Assembly: GCA_037443565.1 (NCBI GenBank)
Contig: JBBIOB010000008.1
Location: 3,166-67,165 of the forward strand
Source of the DNA: Armatimonadota bacterium
GTDB taxonomy: Bacteria > Sysuimicrobiota > Sysuimicrobiia > Sysuimicrobiales > Humicultoraceae
DNA: 64,000 bases
Direction of reading: 5' to 3'
Made by a program: the position numbers and the translations under genes. The notes under the pieces are model-generated. The model saw only the letters and a program-made list of their open reading frames with translations. It ran no database searches and had not been told where the DNA came from. Positions 2,992 to 54,253 of this stretch are shown here, in pieces (position 1 is the stretch's first letter; each line of letters starts with the position of its first letter).

Positions 2992-4219
2992 CGCGAAACC
3001 CCTCGAACCATCCCTTCAGGTGATTCAGAAACTGCACCGCCGTCGCGCCGTCGAAGATCCGGTGGTCGAACGACAGGCCCAGGTGCATCATCGGCCGGAT
3101 CGCGATGGCATCGTCGCGCACAACCGCGCGCTTGACGATCGCGTCGGTGGCGAGGATGGCGGCCTGCCCGGGCACGACGATCGGCATGGACCAGATCGAG
3201 CCGAAGACCCCGGGGTTGGTGATGGTGAACGTGCCGCCCTGGATGTCGGCCAGGACCAGTCGGCCCGCCCGCGCACGGCCCGTCAGGTCGTCGAGCGCCC
3301 TGGCGACGCCGGCCAGGCTCAACCGGTCCGCATCGTGAATCACCGGCACGACGAGGCCCTCGTCCGCGGCGATACCGATGCCGATGTTGACTGCCCGCCG
3401 CATGATCACCCCGTCCTCGCTCCACGACGAGTTCACGATCGGATACGCCCGCAGCGCTTCGCAGGCGGCGGCCACGAAGAATGCGGTGTAGGTCAGCGGA
3501 ACCCCTTCGCGCGCGCGCCAGGCCTCCTTGTGTGCCTCGCGCCAGGTGACCACGGCGCGCATGTCCGTCTCGATGACCCCGTACGCGTGCGGAATCTCCC
3601 GCTTGCTCTGCGCCATCCGCTGCGCGATGGCGCGGCGGACCGGCGAGAGCTTCACTACGTCATCCCCCGACCGTGGCGCGACGAGGGGTGTCGGCTCCGT
3701 GTGCGCCCCGACGCGGTCCCGGTCGGCCACATAGTGCAGGATGTCCTCTTTGGTGATCCGGCCTCCGGCTCCGGATCCCCGCAGAGTCTCGAGCACGTGG
3801 TGGGGAATCCGGTGTTCCTCTGCCAGCCGGCGCACGAGAGGCGACAGCCTGACCCCTCGCACGGCGGCCGGGGGCGCCGCGCCAGCGTCCGCCGCGGCCA
3901 CGGGCCGCCCGGCCGCTGGCTCCGTGGTCGCCGGCTGGTCGGCCGCGGGCGCCTCGCTCGATCCCGCCGGCCCCTCGGGCACCGCGACATCGATGAGGGC
4001 GATCGGCGCGCCGACCGGTCGCGTCTCGCCCTCGGAGGCCAGCAGTTCGACCAGCACGCCGCCGAGCGGGGAGGGCATCTCCACGTTGACCTTGTCCGTC
4101 GTGATCTCGGCAAGCGGCTCGTACTTCTCGATCGAATCGCCGGGCTTCTTCAGCCACCTGGCGATCGTGCCTTCGTGGATGCTCTCCCCAAGCTGGGGGA
4201 GCTTGATCTCGACCGGCAT
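2981..4219 (-). CDS. Dihydrolipoamide acyltransferase (E2) of a branched-chain-type 2-oxoacid dehydrogenase complex
   Basis: ORF trimmed to the ATG at 4219, which has a GGAGG upstream. [28 protein letters not shown]...[13 protein letters not shown] (lipoyl domain), an Ala/Pro linker, an [11 protein letters not shown] subunit-binding domain, and a catalytic ...[10 protein letters not shown] motif. Confidence 0.9.
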
Positions 4220-4229
4220 AGCCTCCCTC

Positions 4230-5210
4230 TCAGTATGCCGCCAGCCGCCGCACCGCGTCGGCAATCTTCGTGGACGTGGGCATGAAGGCGGCCGCCAGGC
4301 TGTCGGCGTATGGGACCGCCGGCACATCGAGGCCCGCGACGCGGAGGATGGGCCCGTCCAGGGCGTCGAACGCCTCTTCGGCGATGAGGGCCGCGACCTC
4401 GGCCCCATAGCCGAGAAACCGGTTGTCCTCGTAGACGATCATCGCCTTGCTGGTCTTCCGCACCGACGCCAGGATGGTCTGGACGTCGAGCGGCCGGAGT
4501 GTGCGTAGGTCCACCACCTCGGCGTCGATGCCCTCCGTGACGACCTCCTCGGCGGCGCGCAGCGCCTCGTGGAGCATCATCCCGTAGGCGAACAGCGACA
4601 GCGTGCTCCCCGGTCGCCGGACCACCGCCGGGCCGATGGGGACCACGTAGTCGTCGTCGGGCACGTCGCCCCTGACCAACCGGTACAGCCGCTTGTGCTC
4701 CAGGAAGAGCACCGGGTCGGGGTCACGGATGGCGGCCTTGAGCAGGCCCTTGGCGTCGTAGGCCGTGTACGGCGTGACCACCTTGAGCCCGGGGATGTGT
4801 GCGAAGGTCGCCTCGATGCTCTGCGAGTGGTACAGCCCGCCGTGCACCTCGACCCCGCCTCCGTACGGCGCCCGGATGGTGATCGGGCAGCCGAACGTGC
4901 CGTTGCTCCGGTAGCGGATCCGCGCCGCCTCGCTGACGATCTGGTTGTACGCCGGGTGGATGAAGTCCGAGAACTGGATCTCCGCGATAGGGATCAGCCC
5001 GTTGGCCGCCATGCCGATCGCGGCGCCGACGATGGACGACTCGGCCAGCGGGGTATCGAGTACCCGAGCCTCGCCAAACTCCGCGTAGAACCCGTCGGTG
5101 CAGCCGAACACGCCGCCTTTCAGCCCCACATCCTCGCCAAGCACGAGCACCCGCTCGTCTCGGCGCATCTCCTCGTACATGGCGAGGCGGATCGCGTCGA
5201 TGTAGCGCAT
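4230..5210 (-). CDS. 2-oxoacid dehydrogenase E1 beta subunit
   Basis: ORF trimmed to the ATG at 5210 (an alternative GTG lies at 5219). MRYIDAIRLAMYEEMRRDERVLVLGEDVG...DTPLAESSIVGAAIGMA is typical of E1 beta. The substrate assignment is an inference. Confidence 0.9.
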   Translation of the reverse strand: MRYIDAIRLAMYEEMRRDERVLVLGEDVGLKGGVFGCTDGFYAEFGEARVLDTPLAESSIVGAAIGMAANGLIPIAEIQFSDFIHPAYNQIVSEAARIRYRSNGTFGCPITIRAPYGGGVEVHGGLYHSQSIEATFAHIPGLKVVTPYTAYDAKGLLKAAIRDPDPVLFLEHKRLYRLVRGDVPDDDYVVPIGPAVVRRPGSTLSLFAYGMMLHEALRAAEEVVTEGIDAEVVDLRTLRPLDVQTILASVRKTSKAMIVYEDNRFLGYGAEVAALIAEEAFDALDGPILRVAGLDVPAVPYADSLAAAFMPTSTKIADAVRRLAAY

Positions 5211-19102: not shown

Positions 19103-20071
19103 ATGGCGATCCGGCTCGCGCAGACATCCGCCTCACAGGCCACCCGGGACGCCTACGGCGAGGCGCTGGTGGCCGTCGCCCGGAACAACCCGCGCATCGT
19201 GGCGCTCACCGGCGACCTGCGTGACTCCAACCGTCTGGAGGCGTTCGCGGCCGCCTACCCTGACCGGTTCATCGAGTGCGGGATCGCGGAGCAGAATATG
19301 GCCGGGGTCGCGGCGGGCCTGGCCACATGCGGGAAGATCCCGTTCGTGAGCTCGTTTGCCGCGTTCTCGCCCGGGCGGTGCTACGACCAGATCCGCGTGC
19401 TCATCGCGCAGCCCCGCCTCAGCGTCAAGCTGGTCAGCACGCACGGCGGGATCACGGTGGGCGAGGACGGCATGAGTGCGCAGGCCGTCGAGGAGCTCGC
19501 GATGATGCGCGCGCTGGCCAATATGACAGTCCTCGTCCCGGCCGACGCGGTCGAGACCGCACAGGCCATCGGGGCGCTGACAGAACACGTCGGCCCGGCG
19601 TACATGCGCCTGGGCCGATCCGCCGTGCCGGTCCTCTTTGATGACGGCTATCGCTTTGCCATCGGCACCGCGCCGGTGCTCCGCGACGGGGACGACGTTG
19701 CGATCGCGGCGTGCGGGGTCATGGTCAGCCGGGCCCTGGCCGCCGCGGACACCCTGGCCGCCGAGGGGATCTCGGCCAGGGTCCTCAACTGTTCAACGCT
19801 GAAGCCGCTCGACGCATCGGCGATCGTCGCGGCCGCGCGGGAAACGGGCGCCATCGTCACCGCGGAAGAGCACACGGTCTACGGTGGCCTTGGCGGCGCG
19901 GTGTGCGAGGTCGCGGCGGCGCATCATCCGGTGCCGGTCGAGCGCGTGGGCTTGCAGGACTGCTACGGCGAGTCCGGATCCCCTGAGGCGCTGCTGGAGA
20001 AGTACGGGCTCACCGCCGCGGCGATCGCATCGGCCGCCCGCCGCGCGGTCAGTCGGAAGACGCGCCCCTAG
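19103..20071 (+). CDS. tkt: Transketolase, C-terminal (pyrimidine-binding/C-terminal domain) subunit
   Basis: 322 aa. ...FIECGIAEQNMAGVAAGLA..., starting 4 nt after the N-terminal subunit gene. Confidence 0.9.
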   Translation: MAIRLAQTSASQATRDAYGEALVAVARNNPRIVALTGDLRDSNRLEAFAAAYPDRFIECGIAEQNMAGVAAGLATCGKIPFVSSFAAFSPGRCYDQIRVLIAQPRLSVKLVSTHGGITVGEDGMSAQAVEELAMMRALANMTVLVPADAVETAQAIGALTEHVGPAYMRLGRSAVPVLFDDGYRFAIGTAPVLRDGDDVAIAACGVMVSRALAAADTLAAEGISARVLNCSTLKPLDASAIVAAARETGAIVTAEEHTVYGGLGGAVCEVAAAHHPVPVERVGLQDCYGESGSPEALLEKYGLTAAAIASAARRAVSRKTRP

Positions 20072-21981
20072 TCCCCCCGGAGCCCGCGTGCGATGGACGG
20101 CGCAGTCTTGGGCCGCCGACGGGCCGCCACACGGTAGGCAGGAACCGGCGCGGCCGGGCGCGCCGCCGCTCCCCACTCACGGCCGAGCCTCAGCCTGGCC
20201 CCCGGCGAGTATGTCGGCGGCTTGGGCCGGCTGAGACTCTGGGCCAGCGCGCCGAACGCCCAGGCCGAAGCCGCCAGGAACACGGTCGGAAACGCGATCA
20301 GCCACCAGTCTCCGCGGTGCATGGCTTCACGTGCGCGCCACAGCAGCGTCCCCCAGCTCGGCGTGGTCGGCGCGACGGTGAACCCAAGAAAGCCCAGCGT
20401 GGCCTCCAGCAGGATGAAGCCCGGCACGAGCGCGAGCGCCGCCCCAAGCACCGGCCGCGCCAGGTGTGGGAGCAGGTGGCGCTCGCCGATCCAGAGTCGC
20501 GCCGCGCCGGAGGCCCGCGCCGCCTCGACGAACGACCAGCGCCGCGCGTCGGCCAGGAGCGCCGCCAGCGGCCCGATCAGCGTGGCACAGCCGATCACCG
20601 CGAGCCACGCCGCGATAAACGCTGGTTCGCGGCCCGCGGTGGCGATCGCGGCCAGCAGGACGCCCAGCGACGGCACGGCCAGCGCAACACGGCCTGCTCC
20701 GTGCAGCGGCGCCTGCCATTCCGGACGCGCGCTCACCGCGGCGGCGAGCCCCGCGGCGGCGAGCCCCGCGGCGACGGCGGCGCCGAGCGCCATCCCCAGG
20801 CTCGTACGTCCCGCGTACAGGAGACGGCTGAACAGATCGCGGCCAGAGGCGTCGGTCCCCATCCAGTGCCGGAGCGAGGGCGGCATGTTGATCTCGTCGA
20901 GCAGCACCTGGTCCGGCGGGAACGTGGCGACAAGCGGAGCCGCTGCCGCACCCATGACCACGAGCGCGGTGATCGCCATGGCCACACGGGCTCGGAGGTC
21001 CGGCGGGGTCAGTGGCGCCGGCCGACGCACGACGGTCCGGCGCGCGGCACCGATCGCCGCAGGATCGGTCCCCAGACGCCCCGAGGCCAGGCGGAGGACG
21101 ATCTCGCCTGCGACGGCGATCGCGGCGAGCACGAGCAGGACCGCCTGCATCACCGGGATGTCGCGCTGCCCGACGGCGCGCGTGAAGCTGCGCCCGATGC
21201 CGGGCCAGTTGAAGATCTCCTCCACGACCAGGAGTCCGGAGAGCAGCACCGACAGGGCCGGGAGAGGGCGTGCCAGCACGGTCTTCGCCGCCACGCCGGC
21301 CGCGTGCCGCCACAGCACCCGTCGCTCCGAGAGGCCCCTGGCGCGGGCCGCTTCGAGAAACCGCGCCCCGAGCACCTCGGAGAGCTCGCCGCGGAGCTGC
21401 TGCGCCATCCAGGCCGCCACGGGCAGCGACAGGCTGATCGTCGGCAACAGCAGCCCCAACCAGAGCGCGGCGTCGAACGGATTCAGCTCAAACGGCGGGA
21501 GAATGGGGATCAGCGTCAGCCGCACGGCGAAGGCGTACACCGTCGCGGACGCGACCAGGAACACCGGTATCGCCACACCGAGGGCGATGACCCCGCGCCC
21601 GGCCCACGAGAACGCCCCCCGGCAGGCGGCGGCGACCGCCAGGGGGACGGCCAGCAGCCAGGCCGCAGCAGCCGCGGACGTCGCGAGCAGGAGCGACCAC
21701 GGCAGGCGCCTCCAGATCTCCGGCCCGATGTCCCGGCGCGTGGCCAGCGACGTGCCGAACTCCCCCCGGACGGCCCGCCCGGCCCACAGCGCGTACTGGA
21801 ACGGGATCGGGGTGTCGAGGCGGTACCACTCGCGCAGCCGGTGGATCTGCTCCTCGCGCACTCCCTGGCGAAACCCGATCATGAAGCGGGCCGGATCCAT
21901 CGGCGCAAGGTGCATGAACCCGAACGCCACAAACGACGCGCCGAGCAGGGTCAACAGGCCGGCGGCGAGCGCCCGGCGCAT
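20068..21981 (-). CDS. Fused ABC transporter permease (DppB/OppB-like N-terminal half plus DppC/OppC-like C-terminal half)
   Basis: 637 aa and polytopic. The N-terminus MRRALAAGLLTLLGASFVAFGFMHLAPMDPA is typical of DppB/OppB. It starts 7 nt after the sufU stop. There is no cognate ATPase or binding-protein gene adjacent. Confidence 0.7.
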   Translation of the reverse strand: MRRALAAGLLTLLGASFVAFGFMHLAPMDPARFMIGFRQGVREEQIHRLREWYRLDTPIPFQYALWAGRAVRGEFGTSLATRRDIGPEIWRRLPWSLLLATSAAAAAWLLAVPLAVAAACRGAFSWAGRGVIALGVAIPVFLVASATVYAFAVRLTLIPILPPFELNPFDAALWLGLLLPTISLSLPVAAWMAQQLRGELSEVLGARFLEAARARGLSERRVLWRHAAGVAAKTVLARPLPALSVLLSGLLVVEEIFNWPGIGRSFTRAVGQRDIPVMQAVLLVLAAIAVAGEIVLRLASGRLGTDPAAIGAARRTVVRRPAPLTPPDLRARVAMAITALVVMGAAAAPLVATFPPDQVLLDEINMPPSLRHWMGTDASGRDLFSRLLYAGRTSLGMALGAAVAAGLAAAGLAAAVSARPEWQAPLHGAGRVALAVPSLGVLLAAIATAGREPAFIAAWLAVIGCATLIGPLAALLADARRWSFVEAARASGAARLWIGERHLLPHLARPVLGAALALVPGFILLEATLGFLGFTVAPTTPSWGTLLWRAREAMHRGDWWLIAFPTVFLAASAWAFGALAQSLSRPKPPTYSPGARLRLGREWGAAARPAAPVPAYRVAARRRPKTAPSIARGLRGD

Positions 21982-25924: not shown

Positions 25925-28345
25925 TCAGCCGACCGACCCCTCCATCTCGAGCGCGATCAGCCGGTTCAGCTCGACGGCGTACTCCAGCGGCAGCTCCTTG
26001 ACGATGGGCTCGATGAACCCGCGCACGATCATGTTCATGGCCTCGTCGCCCTTGACCCCGCGGCTCATCAGGTAGAAGAGCTGCTCGTCGCTGACCTTCG
26101 AGACGGTGGCCTCATGGGTGATCGACACATCCTGCTCTTCGATCTCCATGTACGGGTACGTATCCGACCGGCTGTGATCGTCGAGGATCAGCGCGTCGCA
26201 GCGCACCGCGCACTTGCTCCCCACGGCCCCAGGGTAGATCTTGACGAGCCCGCGGTAACCGGCGCGGCCGCCGTCTTTGCTGATGGACTTGCTCACGACG
26301 CTCGACTGGGTGTGCGGCGCGGCGTGCACGACCTTGCCGCCGGGATCCTGGTGCTGGCCCTTGCCGGCGAACGCCACCGACAGGATCTCGGCCTTGGCGC
26401 CCGGCTCGACCATGTAGACGCTCGGGTACTTCATGGTGATCTTGCTGTTGTGGACCACGAATCCGTTCGCCACGAAGTTGTGGCTGTTGGCGATCTCCAA
26501 GTCCCAGGTGTCTTCCACACCTTCAGGCTCGACGGTGGCGACCTTCGTGAAATGTACTGGATGATCGTGTGCGCCTTCCCCGAAGTACAGGAAGTAGTGC
26601 GTGTACTGCTTCGCCTCGCGGGAAAGGGGCTTTCGCTCCAGCCGAGACCACCGGCTGATCTTCCTGGGATCCAACCCGCAGGAGATCGCCAGGGCCTTCA
26701 CGTCCTCAAGAAGGTCCCGGTTGACGCTCGTGATCGACAGGTTGGTATGGTTGGCGCGGCGATGCCCGTCGGCCGCGATGTACCCCTCGATGAACGCCAG
26801 GCGCTGCGACTTCGGGAGCCGGTACACCCACCGGGGAACCCGCTTCTGCCTGGCGTTGCCCGCAAGCCCCAGCGACGTGATGAAGTCGCGGAGATGGACA
26901 GAGTTGATGCGGACGACGCCGCCCCGCAATTCGACGTCTACGCCGAACAGCGCCTCCAGGAGCTCGACCAGTCGGGTGTGCATCCGGTCCGGCGGGGGGA
27001 CCGCGAAGTAGACCCGGTTGCGGTCCACATAGCCGTCGCCGAGATAGACGCCGAGCACCCACATCAGATCGTCGGTGCTGACATCAGGAAGCAGGATCCG
27101 CTTTGTCCCGCGGATGGGAATCGGCTCGAAGACCCTGGCCACGCCGCTGTCCGGCACATCGCCGGCGATCGCGACGTAGTCAGTAGATGTCAACTGATCC
27201 AGCCGCTTCCATCCCAGGGAGAGCCGCCGGCCGCGCTTGGACAGCGTCAGGAACGGGTGGCTTGCAGTGGCGCGGATCTCACGGTGGTTGGCGGCCCGCA
27301 GACGGTACACCGGCTGCCTGCCGCTGTACTTCTTGGCCACGACCTTGTGCCTGGTCAGCTTCAGCTCGCCATCCACGGAGTAAACGGTATCGCCCGGCTC
27401 GACGACACTGATGGGCTTGACGTCGTTGTTGAGCAGAACCTGGCTGTCGCCCGTCAGGCACCCCAGGTTTCCGTCGACCCACTCCATCGTGGCGTCGCGA
27501 TACGCGACCGCGCGCTTCGTCACCAGGTTGTACGTATTGGTGGACCAGTTCTGGATCGTGGTGTAGCGGCATCGGGCGCCTTCCTTCACGATGATCTCGA
27601 CCACCGCCGAGTGCAGCGAGTCGGTGGTGTAGATCGGCGCCGTGCACCCCTCGACGTAGTGCACGTAGGAGCCCGGCTCGCAGATGATGAGCGTGCGCTC
27701 GAACTGGCCGGCCTTCTCGGCGTTGATCCGGAAGTAGGCCTGGAGCGGGATGTCGACCTTCACGCCCTCGGGCACGTAGACGAACGACCCGCCCGACCAC
27801 ACGGCCGTGTTCAGGGCGGCCAGCTTGTTATCCTCGGGCGGCACCACCGTCCCGAAGTACTGCTGGAAGATCTCCGGGTGCTTCTTGAGGGCGGTGTCGG
27901 TGTCGAGGAAGACGACCCCGAGCTTCTCCCACTCTTCCTTCAGGTTGTGGTAGACCGACTCGCTCTCATACTGCGCCCCCACGCCGGCCAGGTACTTCTT
28001 CTCGGCTTCGGGGATGCCCAGCCGGTCGAACGTTCGCTTGATGTCCTCCGGCACATCCTCCCACGTGCGGCCCTTCCCCTCGGTCGGCTTCAGGTAGTAG
28101 TAGATGTCGTTGAAGTCGATCTGCGAGAGGTCGGCGCCCCAGGTGGGCAGGGCCCGCGCCCGGAAGTGCTCGAGGGAGTGCAGCCGGATCGCGCGCATCC
28201 AGTCCGGCTCGCTCTTCATGTGCGAGATCTCCTCGACGACCTCGCGGTCGAGCCCTTTGCGCGCCTTGAACACGTAGTTCTCGGGGTCGCGAAATCCCCA
28301 CTTGTAAGTGTCGAGATCGATGCCCAGCGGATTTGTCGTCGCCAT
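25925..28345 (-). CDS. sufB: Fe-S cluster assembly protein SufB, interrupted by an in-frame intein (806-aa precursor, about 468-aa extein)
   Basis: The N-extein ends ...YRDATMEWVDGNLG and the C-extein resumes SKITMKYPSVYM... The tail ...DEQLFYLMSRGV...IVRGFIEPIVKELPLEYAVELNRLI is typical of SufB. Confidence 0.95.
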   Translation of the reverse strand: MATTNPLGIDLDTYKWGFRDPENYVFKARKGLDREVVEEISHMKSEPDWMRAIRLHSLEHFRARALPTWGADLSQIDFNDIYYYLKPTEGKGRTWEDVPEDIKRTFDRLGIPEAEKKYLAGVGAQYESESVYHNLKEEWEKLGVVFLDTDTALKKHPEIFQQYFGTVVPPEDNKLAALNTAVWSGGSFVYVPEGVKVDIPLQAYFRINAEKAGQFERTLIICEPGSYVHYVEGCTAPIYTTDSLHSAVVEIIVKEGARCRYTTIQNWSTNTYNLVTKRAVAYRDATMEWVDGNLGCLTGDSQVLLNNDVKPISVVEPGDTVYSVDGELKLTRHKVVAKKYSGRQPVYRLRAANHREIRATASHPFLTLSKRGRRLSLGWKRLDQLTSTDYVAIAGDVPDSGVARVFEPIPIRGTKRILLPDVSTDDLMWVLGVYLGDGYVDRNRVYFAVPPPDRMHTRLVELLEALFGVDVELRGGVVRINSVHLRDFITSLGLAGNARQKRVPRWVYRLPKSQRLAFIEGYIAADGHRRANHTNLSITSVNRDLLEDVKALAISCGLDPRKISRWSRLERKPLSREAKQYTHYFLYFGEGAHDHPVHFTKVATVEPEGVEDTWDLEIANSHNFVANGFVVHNSKITMKYPSVYMVEPGAKAEILSVAFAGKGQHQDPGGKVVHAAPHTQSSVVSKSISKDGGRAGYRGLVKIYPGAVGSKCAVRCDALILDDHSRSDTYPYMEIEEQDVSITHEATVSKVSDEQLFYLMSRGVKGDEAMNMIVRGFIEPIVKELPLEYAVELNRLIALEMEGSVG
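26447..27460 (-). mobile_element. Full-size class-1 intein with a LAGLIDADG homing-endonuclease domain (338 aa) inside sufB
   Basis: Begins CLTGDSQVLL (Cys1, TGC at 27460-27458). Block B is ATASHPFL (TxxH). LAGLIDADG motifs are LMWVLGVYLGDGYV and LAFIEGYIAADGH. It ends NFVANGFVVHN (AAC at 26449-26447), followed by Ser at +1. Confidence 0.9.
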
Positions 28346-48607: not shown

Positions 48608-49891
48608 CTATGCCGCAATACGAAGGACCGCGTGCACCGCAGCCACCGCGTCGAGCGCCTTCAGGCGGGCCAGCACACGCTGCATCGAGGCTTCCCGCGC
48701 CTCATGCGTCACCAGCACCGCGTCCGCGGTGACCCCGCGACTCTTCTGCACGATCGACGCGATACTGACTCCTTCGTCGCCGAAGGCCCCGGCCACCTGC
48801 GCGAACACGCCGGGCCGGTCCGATACCTCGAGGAGGACACAGTACGGAACGACGATGTCGGCGATCTCGCGGATCGGGCGGCGAGGGAATTCCTGACGGC
48901 CGAGGCGACCTCCTGCTCCCCTCCGGATGTTGCGGGCCGCATCGATCACATCGCCGACCACGGCGCTCGCGGTCGGGCCCCCTCCCGCGCCGCGGCCCTC
49001 GAGCACGATGGGGCCGACCGGATCGCCGTCGATCATGACGGCGTTCAGCTCATCGGCGACACTAGCCAGAGGGTGTGCCATCGGCAGCAGGCCGGGATGC
49101 ACTCGAGCCTCGACCGCGCCGCCCTCGCACCGGGCGATGGCCAGCAGCTTCACGGCGTATCCCAGCTCCCGGGCATACGCGATGTCGCGCTGCGTGAGCC
49201 CGCTGATCCCCTCGCGGTAGACGTCGTCTCCGGCCACCCGACAGCCGAACGCCAGGGAGGCGAGGATCGCGAGCTTCGCCGCCGCGTCATGACCGTCCAC
49301 GTCATCCGTAGGATCGCTCTCGGCAAATCCGCGCTGCTGCGCGGCCACCAGCGCCTCGGCGAACCCCACACCGTCGTGGGCCATTCGTGTGAGAATGAAG
49401 TTCGTCGTGCCGTTGAGGATGCCAACAACCTGCCGGATGGCATTGGCCGCCAGCGACTCGGTGATGGCCTTGACCACCGGAATGCCGCCGCCGACGCTCG
49501 CCTCGAAGAACAGGTCTGTCCCGGCGCGGGCGGCCGCGGCCAGCAGTTCGTCGCCTCGCGACGACATCAACTGCTTGTTTGCGGTTACGACGGCCTTGCC
49601 GCGGGAGAGCGCGGCCATGATGTACGAGCGGGCGGGTTCGATCCCGCCGATCACCTCGACGACAACGTCGACCGCAGGATCCTCGACGAGTGCGCGGCCG
49701 TCGCCTCCAATGAGGCCGGCTGGCAGGGTCAGGGGGCGAGGGCGTTCAGGATGCGCGACGGCGACGCGCTGCAGGACGACCGGAATCCCGGCGCGGCCAG
49801 CGATCTCGCCGCTGCGATGTATGAGCAGATCAGCGACGGCTGTCCCCACCGTTCCCAGTCCCAGCAGCCCAATGCGACAGATCCCCTCCAC
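48608..49891 (-). CDS. hom: Homoserine dehydrogenase
   Basis: Trimmed to the GTG at 49891 (GGAGGGAGG upstream): VEGICRIGLLGLGTVGTAV... NAD motif, with a C-terminal ACT domain. The track ORF extends to 50071 with an implausible N-terminus. Confidence 0.9.
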   Translation of the reverse strand: MEGICRIGLLGLGTVGTAVADLLIHRSGEIAGRAGIPVVLQRVAVAHPERPRPLTLPAGLIGGDGRALVEDPAVDVVVEVIGGIEPARSYIMAALSRGKAVVTANKQLMSSRGDELLAAAARAGTDLFFEASVGGGIPVVKAITESLAANAIRQVVGILNGTTNFILTRMAHDGVGFAEALVAAQQRGFAESDPTDDVDGHDAAAKLAILASLAFGCRVAGDDVYREGISGLTQRDIAYARELGYAVKLLAIARCEGGAVEARVHPGLLPMAHPLASVADELNAVMIDGDPVGPIVLEGRGAGGGPTASAVVGDVIDAARNIRRGAGGRLGRQEFPRRPIREIADIVVPYCVLLEVSDRPGVFAQVAGAFGDEGVSIASIVQKSRGVTADAVLVTHEAREASMQRVLARLKALDAVAAVHAVLRIAA

Positions 49892-49923
49892 TGAATCCTC
49901 CCTCCGGCCTGAGCAACGCCCCA

Positions 49924-49953
49924 CGCATACCAGACGGCCGGAGGTGGTGTCAA
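49924..49953 (-). promoter_or_regulatory. Candidate promoter for hom-thrC-lysC: perfect -35 TTGACA, 18-nt spacer, weak -10 TATGCG
   Basis: The minus strand reads cTTGACAccacctccggccgtctggTATGCGtgggg, about 35 nt upstream of the hom GTG. Confidence 0.35.
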
Positions 49954-49993
49954 GGCGACCCAGAGGCGGGCGACGGCGGGGCGGCACACGCCG

Positions 49994-50022
49994 TTGACGG
50001 TGACCGACCGGTGGGCTATCGT
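49994..50022 (+). promoter_or_regulatory. Sigma-70-like promoter for the plus-strand HTH-TPR gene: -35 TTGACG, 17-nt spacer, -10 TATCGT
   Basis: Read directly: TTGACGgtgaccgaccggtgggcTATCGT, ending 38 nt upstream of the ATG at 50060. Confidence 0.45.
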
Positions 50023-50059
50023 CGGGACGACGGGTGGCCGGTCGGCCGAGCGACTTCCC

Positions 50060-51292
50060 ATGGGTCGTCATCCATCACGCAGGCACACGTCGCCGGAAGA
50101 GGCGCCCGCCGGCAGGCGTATCCGGCAGCGCCGGCGGGATCTGGGGCTGACGCAGGCGGACTTGGCCGGGTCGGACTACACCAAGAGCTTCATCAGCCAG
50201 ATCGAAGGCGGGCATGCGGATCCGTCGCTCGATACCCTGCGCCTCTTCGGCCGCAGGCTTCACCTGAGTCTCTCGACGATCGCCGGCGACGACGCCGACC
50301 GGCGCCTCGCCCTCCTGGCCGGGCTTCTGGCGTGGGCTGAGTCCCGCGCCGAAGCCGGCCGCTTGGATGCCGCCCGCCAGGCGGCGGCGCTGGTCCGTGA
50401 GATCGCGTCAGAGTCCGCGGCACCGCTGTTCGAAGCCGACGCCCTGCTGATGCTCGCGCACCTGGACACTGCGGCGGGGGACGTCGACGCCGCGCAGCGT
50501 GCGCTTGACGCGGTGGCCGCTCTTCCATTGAGGTCGGGGTCGCGGGTGAGCGTGCGGGCTGCGCTCGCACGGGGGGAACTGGCTCTGCGAAGGCGTGATG
50601 TGACGTCCTCCATCGAGGCATTCCGCCACGTCGCACGCTCGGGCCCTCATACTGCTCGCCATCCCGATCTGCGGGCACAGGCACTCATCGGGCTGGCCGC
50701 CACCGCGGACCGGTCCGGGGATCGACGGCGGGCCCGACGGAGGCTCGAATCGGCCCTCGCGCTGACCGCGCGCCAGGGTCTCCACAGCCTGCGCGGCGAC
50801 GTTCACCTTCGGCTCGCGGCATTGGATGGTCTCGAGGGTCGACACGATTCTGCCCTCCGGCACCTCGAGGAGGCCGCGCAGATGCTCCCCGCCCACCCCC
50901 GGACGAGATTGGCGACTCTGCTTGCCCTGGCGCAGGCAGCTCTGGCGTCGGGGGACCTACCCCTTGCTGAGCGGGCGGCGCAGCACGCCGGTCGGCTGAC
51001 CGAGACCATTGACGATGCGGTCGCCCGGGCAAGGACCGGGGCGCTGATCGGACGGGTGCTGGCCGCGCAGGGCCGCCACGCGGATGGGGCGGCGCGGCTC
51101 TCCGAGGCCGCCTCGCTGATCCGCGGAGAGGCCGCCCCCGTCGAGGTCGTGCAGGCCGCAAGAGAGTTCGGGGAGTTCTACCAGGCGGTGGGCGATCGCG
51201 ATGCGGCGGCGCGCTTCCTTGCGATAGCCTCCCGGCCCACACTGCCGACGACGGCAGACGGCAGTACGCCTGGAGCCGCCGCTCCCTGGTGA
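50060..51292 (+). CDS. XRE-family helix-turn-helix plus TPR-repeat protein (410 aa)
   Basis: RRIRQRRRDLGLTQADLAGSDYTKSFISQIEGGHADPSLDTLRLFGRRLHLSLSTI (HTH_XRE), followed by about 350 aa of Ala/Leu-rich TPR-like helical repeats. The start is set to the ATG at 50060 because the predicted promoter overlaps the track start (TTG at 49994). Confidence 0.8.
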   Translation: MGRHPSRRHTSPEEAPAGRRIRQRRRDLGLTQADLAGSDYTKSFISQIEGGHADPSLDTLRLFGRRLHLSLSTIAGDDADRRLALLAGLLAWAESRAEAGRLDAARQAAALVREIASESAAPLFEADALLMLAHLDTAAGDVDAAQRALDAVAALPLRSGSRVSVRAALARGELALRRRDVTSSIEAFRHVARSGPHTARHPDLRAQALIGLAATADRSGDRRRARRRLESALALTARQGLHSLRGDVHLRLAALDGLEGRHDSALRHLEEAAQMLPAHPRTRLATLLALAQAALASGDLPLAERAAQHAGRLTETIDDAVARARTGALIGRVLAAQGRHADGAARLSEAASLIRGEAAPVEVVQAAREFGEFYQAVGDRDAAARFLAIASRPTLPTTADGSTPGAAAPW

Positions 51293-51298
51293 GTCGGC

Positions 51299-51314
51299 CC
51301 CGGCCTGCGCCGGG
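51299..51314. terminator. 6-bp GC hairpin (CCCGGC-CTGC-GCCGGG) in the 24-nt gap between the convergent HTH-TPR genes
   Basis: Read directly. It is short and has no U-tract. Confidence 0.25.
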
Positions 51315-51316
51315 CG

Positions 51317-52618
51317 CTATGTGACTCCGGCCTCCTGGACGCGGAACGCCCTGGCGAAGAGATGGGCCGCCTGCCCTTCCTCGCCGCGCTCCAAGAGCAG
51401 GAACCCGTAGTCGCGGCTGACCCGCGCCACCTCACCGACAGCCCCGAGGCGTTCGAACTCGTGAAGGGCGTACGCATAGCGATGCACGGCTTCGTCCAGC
51501 TTGCCTTCACGGTGACAGACGGCTGCCATGACGGTCTCGGCGCGCGCCGCCTCCGCCGGATCCTGCAGCCTGACCGCGAGTCGAATTGCTTCCTCGGCCC
51601 GGGAGCGTGCCGCCTCGGAGTCGCCGCGCAAGAATGCGGCGCGCGCCAGTTCGGTCAGGGTCTGCGCTCGGCCGGCGTCGTCCGCGAGCCGGCTGGCCAG
51701 GACGAGGCTCTGCTCGAGCGCAGCCACGCCCTCCTCGGGCTGACCGCGGTTGAGCAGCAGTATGCCGATGCTGCGCTTGACCGTGCCCAGGGCCAGCAGG
51801 TTCTCCTGGGTCTCGAAGAGCACCGCGGCCTTCTCGAGATGCACCCGTGCGAGATCAAATGACTGCTCCCGCTCGTAGGCGACGCCGAGGTTGAAATGCA
51901 ACGCCCCGAGCGACATGAGATCTCCAAGCGGCTCAAGCCGGTCGAGCGCAGCGCGAAAGCACTCGAGGGCCTGGGCCGGCAACCCAAGGTCAGAGTACGT
52001 CCGGCCGAGATTGGCCAGCACGCTGCCCTCGAATTCGGTGTCCGGCGGAGAGGCGGACCGCGCCGCCAACAGCGCCCGCGTGAAGGCGTCTCGGGCGGCC
52101 GGGAAGTCGCGCTTCCGGAGGGAGAGGAACCCTGTGGCGCTTGCCACCCGTGCGACTAAGTCCGGCCGCCCGAGCGCACCTGCGATCTCGCGCGCGCGGT
52201 CAAGATGCTGCTCAGCCAGGTCGAACTGCCTCAGCCCGGTCAGCGCCTGCCCCAGTCCGACCTGAATGCGAAACATGATCTCAGGCGGCGTGTCAGATCC
52301 ACCATGCCGCTCCGCCGCATGATAGGCTTCCACCGCCTCGGTGTGGCGGTGCTGCCGCAAGAGCGCCGCGCCCAGGTTGATCTTCAGGGACATCTGCCGG
52401 GCCAGCGGGGGCTCAGCATCGAGGAGGTGAGAGACCGGAACGCCGAGCCGCCCGGCGAGCAGCCGCAGGCTGTCCAGCGAAGGCCGCACCTTGTCGTGCT
52501 CGAGCATGCTGATGAAGCTCTCCGAGAGCTCCTCGCCGGCGAGCGCGCGCTGCGTCAGGCCGCGGTCTCGGCGAGCGCGGCGCACTTTCTCTCCAAGCGT
52601 CACAACGGTTCCCCCCAA
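51317..52618 (-). CDS. XRE-family helix-turn-helix plus TPR-repeat protein (about 433 aa), paralogue of the convergent neighbour
   Basis: EKVRRARRDRGLTQRALAGEELSESFISMLEHDKVRPSLDSLRLLAGRLGVPVSHLL (HTH_XRE), then multiple TPR-like units (...EAVEAYHAA..., ...ALECFRAALD..., ...RVHLEKAAVLFE...). TTG start at 52618 with GGAG 5 nt upstream. An alternative GTG lies at 52603. Confidence 0.8.
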   Translation of the reverse strand: MGGTVVTLGEKVRRARRDRGLTQRALAGEELSESFISMLEHDKVRPSLDSLRLLAGRLGVPVSHLLDAEPPLARQMSLKINLGAALLRQHRHTEAVEAYHAAERHGGSDTPPEIMFRIQVGLGQALTGLRQFDLAEQHLDRAREIAGALGRPDLVARVASATGFLSLRKRDFPAARDAFTRALLAARSASPPDTEFEGSVLANLGRTYSDLGLPAQALECFRAALDRLEPLGDLMSLGALHFNLGVAYEREQSFDLARVHLEKAAVLFETQENLLALGTVKRSIGILLLNRGQPEEGVAALEQSLVLASRLADDAGRAQTLTELARAAFLRGDSEAARSRAEEAIRLAVRLQDPAEAARAETVMAAVCHREGKLDEAVHRYAYALHEFERLGAVGEVARVSRDYGFLLLERGEEGQAAHLFARAFRVQEAGVT

Positions 52619-52711
52619 GAGATCTCCGGCCCGCGGCCAGGACTGTCAGCCCTGCAGCGGCTTCGTGATCTCGTGACCTGCGGCCAGGCGAAAGGCGCCT
52701 TGATGTGTGCG

Positions 52712-52870
52712 CTACGCCCAGCCGCCCAGCGCTTCGATGTCGCCGTGCCCGGCCCAGCCGCCCAGCGCCTCGATGTCGCCATGTCCGCCCATGAGAGTCG
52801 CCGTGCTACGCAGGTTTGCGCATGAAACGCCGAGCAACACGGCAAGGGCGATCACGACCATGGTTCTCAT
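52712..52870 (-). CDS. Small secreted/lipobox pre-peptide (52 aa) ending in a tandem 12-aa repeat; below the ORF-track length cutoff
   Basis: My translation: MRTMVVIALAVLLGVSCANLRSTATLMGGHGDIEALGGWAGHGDIEALGGWA*. GGGGGGAG lies 7 nt upstream of the ATG at 52870. The N-terminal signal peptide has an LLGVSC lipobox-like site. The two 36-nt repeat copies differ at 4 positions, all third-codon and synonymous in this frame only. Confidence 0.7.
   Translation of the reverse strand: MRTMVVIALAVLLGVSCANLRSTATLMGGHGDIEALGGWAGHGDIEALGGWA
52715..52786 (-). repeat. 36-nt x 2 tandem repeat encoding GHGDIEALGGWA twice
   Basis: Copy 1 (52786-52751): ggacatggcgacatcgaggcgctgggcggctgggcc. Copy 2 (52750-52715): gggcacggcgacatcgaagcgctgggcggctgggcg. 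Confidence 0.95.
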
Positions 52871-53146
52871 CTGATTCTCCCCCCTCAGGGTTCGGGCTGC
52901 GGATCGTCCAAAGGCAGGCTTCGATCTGGGAATGCCCGACGTTTCGACACCTGCCGGTGAAGTTCCTCCATTGGAAGGCTCTCACTTCATCAATACTGAA
53001 GTCCGATGCCCGGTGGCCGCTGAACTATCGTTTGGGAGGCCGATTTCTTGCAGTTCCCGGCAGGAACCGAAGAGCAATGGCAAAAATCACTCTGTCTGAA
53101 CTGGCGGGTTCTCCACGCGTTCACCGCCACGCGCGGAAGGGTCGGT

Positions 53147-53227
53147 CCTGACACCAGGTCAGGTCGGGGGCGGCACCTCCGGACCGACGAGGCCGGAGGG
53201 CGTCGTTCCGGTAGCCGCCCCCCGACC
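53147..53227 (-). terminator. Compound GC-rich stem-loop structure downstream of the dioxygenase gene; possible terminator or insulator
   Basis: Outer stem GGTCGGGGGCGGC (53162-53174) pairs with GCCGCCCCCCGACC (53214-53227) with one bulge. Inner hairpin CCTCCGG-N10-CCGGAGG (53176-53199). Adjacent hairpin CCTGAC-N5-GTCAGG (53147-53163). There is no U-tract. Confidence 0.4.
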
Positions 53228-53263
53228 TCTCTCCTGGACTGCAAGCGGATCTCTGGGTTCGCC

Positions 53264-54253
53264 CTACGTCACGACGGACGGCCTGTCGCGCAGTGTCGCG
53301 TCTCGGATCGGGCGCGGATCGCCGGTGGTGATGTCCTCCACCGCCGATGCCTCGTCGAACCAGCTTCTGGGAGCCACGTGACCCCAGAACGTCTGGCGTC
53401 GCGGGTCGTTGACACTCCACCGCAGCGGAGGCCGATCGGGATCGGCGGTCAGGTAGTCCCCGGTGTAGAGCTCGATGCGGTGGCCGTCGGGATCGCGCAG
53501 GTAGACGAACAGCGCATTGGAGATGCCATGCCGTCCCGGTCCGCGCTCGATCGCCGCGTGCATTCCGGCGCCGGCCAGGATGTCGCACGCGCGGATCACG
53601 TTGACGGTCTCCGGCAGCCAGAACCCGACGTGGTGTAGGCGCGGGCCGGTCCCGTTCATCAACGCGATGTCGTGCACGGTCTGCTTGCGGTGCAACCAGG
53701 CAGCCCACAATCGCGGGGGCGAGTCCTCGGTCTCGGTGTATTCCGAGCATCGGAACCCCCAGGCGGTCGTGTACCACTCGTAGGCCGGCTCGATGTCCGG
53801 CACCTGGCAGTTGAAGTGGTCGATGCGCATGATGTGCGGGCCTCGGTAGTGGTCGAACTGCCGCAGCATCCCGCCGACGCGCTCCATTGCGGCATAGAAC
53901 TCGACGGGCAGCCCTGCCGGATCCTGGACGCGCAGGCCGCGCCCCATGCCGGGCTCCTCGCCCTCGGCGACCCGGCGCACCGGTAGGTCCGCCCGGCGCG
54001 CGATCGTCTCCAGGTGGTCGAGATCCTCGGTGGACGCCACCTTGAACGCCAGGTGCGAGGCCCCGGCGGACGGGGCCAGGCGCAGGATGAGGCTGTGGTG
54101 CTCGGTCTCTTCGAGCCCCCGCAGATACAGGGCTCCTCCCCGGTTCTCGGTCTCCGTGAAGCCGAGAAGGTCCACGTAGAACGCCCGGGCCCTCCCGAGG
54201 TCGGTGACGCGGAGCGCTGCATGGCCCGCCCTGATGATGTTCGGCGCGCTCAT
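53264..54253 (-). CDS. hpaD: Type I (VOC-fold) extradiol ring-cleavage dioxygenase, homoprotocatechuate 2,3-dioxygenase-like
   Basis: Trimmed to the ATG at 54253 (ATGA overlap with hpaC). Two VOC modules, ...RIDHFNC..., ...LHHVGFW..., ...GHRIELYTGDY... metal-ligand contexts. Confidence 0.8.
   Translation of the reverse strand: MSAPNIIRAGHAALRVTDLGRARAFYVDLLGFTETENRGGALYLRGLEETEHHSLILRLAPSAGASHLAFKVASTEDLDHLETIARRADLPVRRVAEGEEPGMGRGLRVQDPAGLPVEFYAAMERVGGMLRQFDHYRGPHIMRIDHFNCQVPDIEPAYEWYTTAWGFRCSEYTETEDSPPRLWAAWLHRKQTVHDIALMNGTGPRLHHVGFWLPETVNVIRACDILAGAGMHAAIERGPGRHGISNALFVYLRDPDGHRIELYTGDYLTADPDRPPLRWSVNDPRRQTFWGHVAPRSWFDEASAVEDITTGDPRPIRDATLRDRPSVVT

Follow-up and report, generated by a model that had tools for sequence, protein, structure and literature searches.

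The 64,000 nucleotides analysed here (positions 3,166 to 67,165 of contig JBBIOB010000008.1 from an Armatimonadota bacterium, assembly GCA_037443565.1; hereafter the window) contain a three-gene region which raises the question of whether peptide signaling of the RRNPP type also operates outside the Bacillota. One of the genes encodes a 52-residue protein that looks like a secreted pro-peptide, and the other two encode regulators A and B, in which an N-terminal XRE-type helix-turn-helix (HTH) domain is combined with tetratricopeptide repeats (TPRs). An earlier note on this DNA had proposed that all three genes form one peptide-receptor module. We found the three open reading frames (ORFs) in place (Table 1), and comparative evidence bears the proposal out for the peptide gene and B, but not for A as a member. 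On balance, and with modest confidence, we lean towards reading the peptide gene and B as an RRNPP-like self-regulated peptide-receptor cassette, similar to PlcR-PapR and NprR-NprX, outside the Bacillota.

Co-occurrence of the small ORF with HTH-TPR orthologues, a check which the note had asked for, turned out strongly positive for B. Our sample comprised 46 loci encoding relatives of B, with about 40 orthologous loci in which B identity ranges from 92% to 44%. Wherever upstream sequence was available, B is preceded on its own strand by a small gene at a distance of 6-149 nt, and in essentially every locus this gene has an AGGAGG or GGGAGG ribosome-binding site. B orthologues keep a length of 426-436 aa across the phylum, the peptide classes track the receptor tree, and the upstream small gene is the only constant neighbor of B across clades. 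The hom and hpa neighbors are present, like A, only where B identity is at least 68%, and the flanks in the deeper clades (B identity 44-51%) consist of cold-shock protein (csp), histidine kinase/response regulator, or cytochrome oxidase genes. Because the pair persists while its other neighbors change between clades, the peptide gene and B represent the unit of conservation. We found no conserved neighbor that the pair might regulate, and no modifying enzyme, protease or transporter gene is conserved beside it in any clade examined.

A 52-codon ORF alone is not significant in DNA of about 69% G+C, and the window contains dozens of such ORFs; the significance of this one comes from its conservation in about 40 loci. 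Its product reads MRTMVVIALAVLLGVSCANLRSTATLMG followed by GHGDIEALGGWA and again GHGDIEALGGWA, i.e., a signal-peptide-like N-terminus and two identical 12-residue units, which in the DNA form a tandem repeat with a period of 36 nt and 2.2 copies (Tandem Repeats Finder). The two units differ in four codons, all synonymously. Across loci the precursors contain one to five copies of the motif, and successive units within multi-copy precursor genes show 81 synonymous versus 37 non-synonymous codon differences. Within the 8-9-residue core, the differences are nearly all synonymous (synonymous/non-synonymous 9/0 in L006, 7/0 in L039, 5/0 in L031, and 4/0 in the window), which shows that the repeats are not fresh duplications and that the amino-acid sequence of each unit has been maintained. 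Judged by these codon patterns, the small gene is translated and under selection. A chance ORF or untranslated leader, with the two HTH-TPR proteins being ordinary regulators of the hom-thrC-ask and hpa operons, would be in keeping with the abundance of such ORFs in GC-rich DNA and with the divergent position of A relative to hom in all close-clade loci. However, a chance ORF is ruled out by the excess of synonymous differences and by the fact that about 40 loci conserve the reading frame, the ribosome-binding site, the signal-peptide pattern and the motif. In distant clades, B keeps the peptide gene but neither hom nor hpa. We give this explanation virtually no credence.

Searching 5.8 billion proteins with a profile of the peptide returned 38 relatives of 36-52 aa, all from the same lineage and all annotated 'hypothetical protein'. 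Across loci, K or R occurs close to the precursor N-terminus, followed by 12-20 hydrophobic residues and then by an AxA-like site; from this n/h/c pattern, used as a rule, we judged that the precursors carry a signal peptide. The element common to all units and clades comprises 8-9 residues. Aligned at its first occurrence, it reads A-G-(H)-G-(D/G)-x-(E/D)-x-(L/F/I), with A-G-x-G nearly invariant; motif positions 1, 3, 4, and 6 are conserved and positions 2, 5, 7, and 8 variable. In the single-copy clade, the AxA-like site stands directly before the motif (VFA/GHGGGELL, ALA/GHGGGELL, AFA/GSGDFDSFG, with a slash at the presumed cut), and in multi-copy precursors an Ala again precedes each unit, so A/G is the putative processing site. 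Cleavage there would release two identical 12-mers from the window protein, since the protein ends exactly after the second unit. A lipoprotein reading of the stretch LLGVSC was rejected, Cys17 being absent from the closest orthologue (LLGISG) and from nearly all others.

Two other fates of the precursor have to be considered at this point. The N-terminal hydrophobic segment could be a signal anchor, in which case the small protein would remain an uncleaved single-pass membrane protein that tethers or titrates B (or A) as part of a partner-switching or anti-regulator device; small membrane proteins controlling cytoplasmic regulators are known in general. We consider this improbable: the positive charges at the N-terminus would place the repeat motif outside, away from a TPR domain in the cytoplasm; conserved AxA-type cleavage sites immediately precede the motif; and identical tandem units under purifying selection are better explained by a precursor of several products. 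Precursors with identical core units in tandem are also typical of several classes of ribosomally synthesized and post-translationally modified peptides (RiPPs). The small ORF might thus encode a multi-core RiPP precursor whose tailoring enzymes are encoded elsewhere and whose pathway is regulated by B, and B indeed shows a weak, sub-threshold NCBIfam match to the RiPP-associated TPR protein HaaT (40 bits, cut-off 1125). Yet the N-terminus resembles a Sec signal and not a RiPP leader, single-copy forms are common, and the lack of conserved modifying enzymes, proteases or transporters beside the pair speaks against such a pathway, which makes this a highly improbable explanation.

B, the candidate receptor in the cytoplasm, matches Pfam HTH_3 (1e-6), with the HTH at about residues 8-66, and TPR_12 (1e-30), in addition to TPR_1, TPR_2, and TPR_8. 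Residues invariant in the B family include R168, R170, N203, R206, N243, and N273 (433-aa numbering). An AlphaFold2 model built from a 30-sequence alignment (predicted local distance difference test 92.7) is all-helical, the five helices of the XRE HTH being followed by 18 helices that form about nine TPR-like pairs. Using Foldseek against the PDB, we aligned this model to the PlcR-PapR7-DNA complex (3u3w, E 2.5e-8) over 278 columns, nearly the whole 280-residue chain with the HTH included, to RapI (4i1a, TM 0.67/0.79) and to NprR (5dbk, TM 0.61/0.73); RapJ (4gyo) was also matched. Sequence identity in the structural alignments with NprR and Rap is only 11-14%. The HTH gave profile matches to the HTH domains of PlcR, ComR, SinR, and DdrO, and the PDB profile search with B gave a weak 60-residue match to Rap3T. 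The model suggests a putative peptide-binding groove in the TPR superhelix. The earlier claim of RRNPP-like receptors therefore stands in part: as modeled, the architecture and fold of B fit RRNPP receptors and are compatible with PlcR, NprR, and Rap, but homology to the RRNPP family, or to any of the RRNPPA subfamilies, is not established.

Two DNA elements upstream of the peptide gene, which we located by regular expressions with flexible spacing, fit a locus of this kind. A palindrome with the core TTCA-N7-TGAA, which reads CTTCAGTATTGATGAAG in the window, sits in the 330 nt before the peptide gene in 22 of 38 orthologous loci, where about 0.0025 matches are expected per 330 nt. It has a single match in the window, and 401 kb of flanking DNA contain three further ones. 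The position of the palindrome resembles that of an activator site, and it is probably an operator to which the XRE-HTH of B binds as a dimer. In most loci it is followed, in fixed order and spacing, by a box about 20 nt downstream; in an anchored alignment this box reads AGGAACTTCA(G/C)-N9-10-GTCGAA(C), and at least 20 loci, drawn from both deep clades, have it. The neighboring genes have canonical TTGACA-N17/18-TATxxx promoters and the peptide gene has none of this type. The box may be either a promoter element of a non-sigma-70, alternative-sigma type or a second binding site. Read as an extracytoplasmic function sigma promoter, GGAAC...GTCGAA gives AAC-N13-GTC (or N15 to CGAA), which is shorter than the usual 16-17 nt.

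The data above establish the genes, the domain layout and modeled fold of B, its phylum-wide linkage with the peptide gene, selection on the core of the repeats and a palindrome specific to the module. We infer the rest: how the peptide is exported, where it is cut, how it is taken up and bound, whether regulation is positive or negative, whether the two genes are co-transcribed, and what the regulon is. The cassette would work as follows. The 52-aa precursor would be exported via Sec by its N-terminal signal peptide and cut after Ala at A/G, giving two short peptides of roughly 8-13 residues with the conserved core GHGDIEAL(G). The accumulating peptide would re-enter the cell, bind the concave groove of the TPR superhelix of B and alter the seat of the B dimer on the TTCA-N7-TGAA palindrome, just upstream of the peptide-B promoter region. 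The unit would in this way regulate itself and presumably also targets elsewhere in the genome.

Several observations weigh against such a cassette. In the Foldseek search with the B model, LGN/Pins TPR domains ranked first (E about 3e-11), above every RRNPP protein. A sequence-profile search of the PDB with B led from the TPR region to generic TPR proteins and reached PlcR via the HTH only, and neither B nor A matched any RRNPP-subfamily model in Pfam or NCBIfam, or any NCBIfam model at its cut-off. The TPR_12 repeats of LGN/Pins are the best structural and profile match to the TPR part of B, but these are eukaryotic scaffolds which, unlike B, have no DNA-binding domain and no associated peptide gene. 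The inner groove of the LGN/Pins superhelix is a binding site for extended peptides. For B, the match indicates no more than a canonical TPR superhelix. We identified no oligopeptide importer in the window. In the closest relative, L001, whose B is 92% identical, both the palindrome and the GGAAC box are absent upstream of the peptide gene. Finally, there is apparently one cassette per genome, and for a pheromone such a conserved core would be unusual; Rap-Phr and AimR-AimP diversify rapidly, whereas the cassette here seems single-copy and core-conserved.

Two further observations concern L001 and a permease. L001 keeps the peptide gene and B; the palindrome and the box are missing from its sequence at 4564..4733 when this is compared with window 52871..53140. 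Its upstream dioxygenase gene is reduced to fragments, which indicates a local rearrangement. The 637-aa protein at 20068..21981 (minus strand), 30 kb away, had been described as a fused Opp/Dpp-like permease; we detected a single match to BPD_transp_1 (residues 112-296), a generic ATP-binding cassette permease domain, and no Opp/Dpp-type mark. No gene for a solute- or peptide-binding protein was found among the neighbors scanned, and a link between this permease and the cassette is not supported.

Some of the unfavorable points suit another explanation, which we regard as unlikely although it deserves weighing. Here, the small protein would be a secreted effector or structural peptide (metal-binding, antimicrobial, or surface-active) and B its dedicated transcription factor, whose TPR domain would sense something else, such as a partner protein or a small molecule. 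The two genes would in that case be linked as regulator and target, and not as receptor and ligand. A single-copy cassette and a peptide core conserved throughout the phylum would suit a fixed extracellular function, which would also be in line with the missing importer; TPR domains commonly bind proteins, and the Gly-His and HGGG stretches are similar to known motifs that bind Cu(II). However, whole clades have S, R, P, D, or V in place of the motif His, so that metal binding, as considered for GHG/HGGG, cannot be the common function. Moreover, the pair is not accompanied by genes for processing, modification or export. In a second phylum, an HTH-TPR protein of about 430 aa is again paired strictly one to one with a small gene whose peptide motif is unrelated, as predicted for a ligand and its receptor; for unrelated effectors this would be a strange coincidence.

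This recurrence is found in the Chloroflexota. P0120, the most distant match of the first search (30% identity), belongs to a family from Ca. Limnocylindria with more than 360 proteins of about 427 aa; its hhalign alignment with the B family is colinear and spans 416 columns (E 3e-36). The family has a weak, colinear PDB profile match to RapJ (5e-8), and the JGI pipeline names some of its members 'quorum sensing regulator NprR'. The four loci examined share with the window a colinear HTH-TPR protein of about 430 aa and an adjacent small gene, which here encodes a signal peptide ending in ASA and two tandem short repeats (LPEDPGI, IQPEDPG, PVDPGYPQ, or VPEDPPPV). They differ in that the peptide gene is divergent, the motif is P-E/V-D-P-G and the genomic context is dtd and polX. 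Because the same theme recurs with an unrelated peptide motif, the pairing seems functional rather than accidental. More tentatively, signaling by HTH-TPR proteins and Sec-exported, often multi-copy peptides may be old and widespread in non-Bacillota Terrabacteria, being core-genomic and vertically inherited in Ca. Sysuimicrobiota, where the signal would be a conserved G-H-G-D/G-x-E-x-L octapeptide, with a sister family in the Limnocylindria. RRNPP-type communication would in that case not have been invented by the Bacillota and would also be at work in abundant, uncultured lineages of soils and hot springs; we hold this to be possible rather than probable. The Limnocylindria loci also contain a second conserved small protein of 57-68 aa, encoded after the peptide gene and before dtd (Table 1). 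It reads ...FLFQHGYRFGKVTYITRLPL..SMTVFAPGHL...VVRGDNPWML and has no Pfam match.

All B homologues come from metagenome-assembled genomes (MAGs) labeled Armatimonadota or 'bacterium', the named sources being Ca. Fervidifonticultor, Geohabitans, Calidihabitans, and the original CSP1-3 bin. CSP1-3 is the candidate phylum Ca. Sysuimicrobiota, and the hosts of B homologues belong to its families Humicultoraceae and Kaftiobacteriaceae (PMC11604079); the CSP1-3 paper, which describes chemoautotrophic enrichments of these bacteria, does not mention quorum sensing. RRNPP(A) systems have been described as a trait of Bacillota, their plasmids and phages (PMC9765709, PMC10075063, PMC12700828), and the relatives reported here, from Ca. 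Sysuimicrobiota MAGs often labeled Armatimonadota, fall outside this host range. Among the papers searched, none paired RRNPP with Armatimonadota, and for other Terrabacteria phyla there was no RRNPP paper among the matches listed. In its layout, the cassette falls within the definition used by RRNPP_detector, a TPR receptor of 250-500 aa beside a secreted peptide of 10-100 aa (PMC10075063), given a peptide of 52 aa whose signal was judged by rule.

PlcR-PapR from the Bacillus cereus group resembles the cassette in combining an XRE HTH with a TPR domain and in having an adjacent gene for a Sec-exported pro-peptide of about 50 aa with a short C-terminal signal. Its palindromic box and autoregulation would have their counterparts in the candidate operator and the proposed self-regulation. 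The differences are that PlcR has 285 aa and 5 TPRs and B 428 aa and about 9, that papR lies downstream of plcR whereas the peptide gene here is upstream of B, that PapR contains one mature unit and the precursors here one to five, and that sequence similarity between PlcR and B is confined to the HTH, the host here being Ca. Sysuimicrobiota and not a member of the Bacillota. NprR is closer in size and layout (about 420 aa, HTH plus 9 TPRs), and the TPR superhelices of NprR, RapJ, and RapI superpose on that of B with TM values of 0.61-0.79. However, nprX and the phr genes lie downstream of their receptors, Rap proteins have no HTH, and Rap-Phr systems are multi-copy, mobile and fast-evolving, unlike the single-copy, chromosomal and vertically conserved cassette.

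The gene order and the multi-unit precursor, both of which had been thought unusual, are less so than assumed: peptide genes upstream of the receptor have already been described for RRNPPA, and multi-copy pro-peptides are known in Rap, NprR, PlcR, and AimR systems (PMC9765709). Neither feature is new in itself. What is new is the lineage of the hosts, the peptide family, and the fact that a single-copy cassette with a strongly conserved core is kept vertically across the phylum. In an uncultured phylum abundant in soils and hot springs, a cassette with RRNPP logic would be conserved on the chromosome in single copy, with a counterpart in the Chloroflexota. If the peptide is the ligand, the known range of RRNPP-type communication would widen; a defined triple of ligand, receptor and operator would be testable in a heterologous host without culturing and would offer an entry point to social or density-dependent behavior of CSP1-3 bacteria. 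With the conserved core and the precursors of one to five copies, the evolution of signal dosage and specificity could also be studied in a natural series.

Regulator A has a different history. It matches Pfam HTH_3 (3e-6) and has a weak TPR match (2e-7). The paralogy claimed for A and B was recovered at the level of families and not of single sequences: BLASTP aligns the HTH alone (47% over 57 aa), whereas with hhalign the profiles of the two families form a colinear alignment of 392 columns (probability 99.9%, E 5e-36), most A proteins lacking one repeat pair relative to the B family. There is good evidence, though not proof, since TPR profiles align easily, that A is an old paralogue of B. 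As mentioned above, A is limited to the close clade. Its orthologues vary from 241 to 450 aa, with the N-terminal 90 residues almost invariant and the C-terminal region variable, the TPRs often being truncated. A has no peptide gene of its own and is preceded by a separate sigma-70-like promoter, predicted by a promoter scan and conserved upstream of A in L001, L002, L006, L009, L020, and L023. On this comparative evidence, A is outside the conserved core unit, and we regard it as a lineage-specific duplicate of B whose ligand-binding part is probably relaxing or decaying. As a second regulator, A might act on related DNA sites or on the adjacent hom-thrC-ask operon; its target might be the palindrome or the hom promoter.

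The features of the locus are collected in Table 1. The three-gene region is flanked by an hpaB/flavin reductase/extradiol dioxygenase operon on one side and the hom-thrC-ask operon on the other, these names being domain labels taken from orthologous loci. The ATG of the pro-peptide gene is preceded by GGGGGGAG, 7 nt upstream. For B, the GTG at 52603 is a likelier start than the TTG at 52618, because a GGGGGG Shine-Dalgarno site lies 7 nt upstream of it and the orthologue P0001, 92% identical to B, also has 428 aa; B thus most likely has 428 aa. The gap between the pro-peptide gene and B amounts to 108 nt with the GTG start or 93 nt with the TTG start. The ATG start of A is confirmed by the N-terminus MGRHPSRRH, which orthologues keep.

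Table 1. Features of the peptide gene/regulator locus, peptide units in related loci and the second small gene of the Limnocylindria loci (coordinates refer to the window unless a locus is named).
Feature	Position	Strand	Details
Regulator A	50060..51292	+	410 aa; XRE-HTH and degenerate TPRs; convergent with B, divergent from hom
Regulator B	51317..52603 (GTG, 428 aa) or to 52618 (TTG, 433 aa)	-	XRE-HTH/TPR
Pro-peptide gene	52712..52870	-	52 aa, 52 codons
Repeat unit 1	52751..52786	-	Residues 29-40, GHGDIEALGGWA
Repeat unit 2	52715..52750	-	Residues 41-52, GHGDIEALGGWA; protein ends exactly at unit end
Palindrome (candidate operator)	52985..53001	-	CTTCAGTATTGATGAAG, core TTCA-N7-TGAA; 115-131 nt upstream of peptide start codon
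Box	52943..52966	-	GGAACTTCA-N9-GTCGAA; 73-96 nt upstream of peptide start; unique in window
Sigma-70-like promoter of A	49994..50022	+	TTGACG-N17-TATCGT; promoter scan
Sigma-70-like promoter of hom	49924..49953	-	TTGACA-N18-TATGCG; conserved across loci
Peptide unit, window			GHGDIEALGGWA; 2 copies
Peptide unit, L006			AGHGDLEVLGGSQ; 4 copies
Peptide unit, L009			AGHGDGPVLDREM; 5 copies
Peptide unit, L022			AGHGDGELLNGGW; 4 copies
Peptide unit, L035, L039			GHGGAELL, back to back; 3 copies
Peptide unit, L033, L036, L041-L044			FA/GHGGGELL and short tail; 1 copy
Peptide unit, L028, L038, L046			AFA/GSGDFDSFG; 1 copy
Peptide unit, L024-L026			AGRGDMDSFG; 1 copy
Second Limnocylindria small gene	L054 748..954; L055 909..1115; L056 920..1093; L057 926..1132	-

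The stop codons of the convergent A and B genes are 24 nt apart in the window. In L009, L011, L014, L020, L012, L013, and L022, 1.3-2.7 kb of additional DNA lie between B and A, so that the tight convergent arrangement is not universal in the close clade. A terminator scan of the locus found none, and shuffled sequences fold as well as the spacer between the peptide gene and B (z 0.11), which gives no evidence for or against read-through from the peptide gene into B. An Rfam search of 49700-53400 matched no RNA family. The hom promoter falls inside the listed hom ORF (487 codons, 48608..50071, minus strand), and hom orthologues have 413-434 aa. Because of the position of this promoter, the real hom start must lie near 49850-49900, without overlap with A.

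At 53150..53230 (minus strand), directly behind the stop codon of the dioxygenase gene (53264), lies a long inverted repeat rich in GC, GGTCGGGGGGCGGC...GCCGCCCCCGACC, whose predicted RNA hairpin has an energy of -60.6 kcal/mol (z -1.75). The repeat is also present in L001, has no T tract, and may mark the end of the hpa operon. Elsewhere in the window, at 25925..28345 (minus strand), a SufB/SufD-type iron-sulfur assembly gene is split by an intein, with Intein_splicing and LAGLIDADG_3 domains located between the two halves of the SUFBD_core domain.

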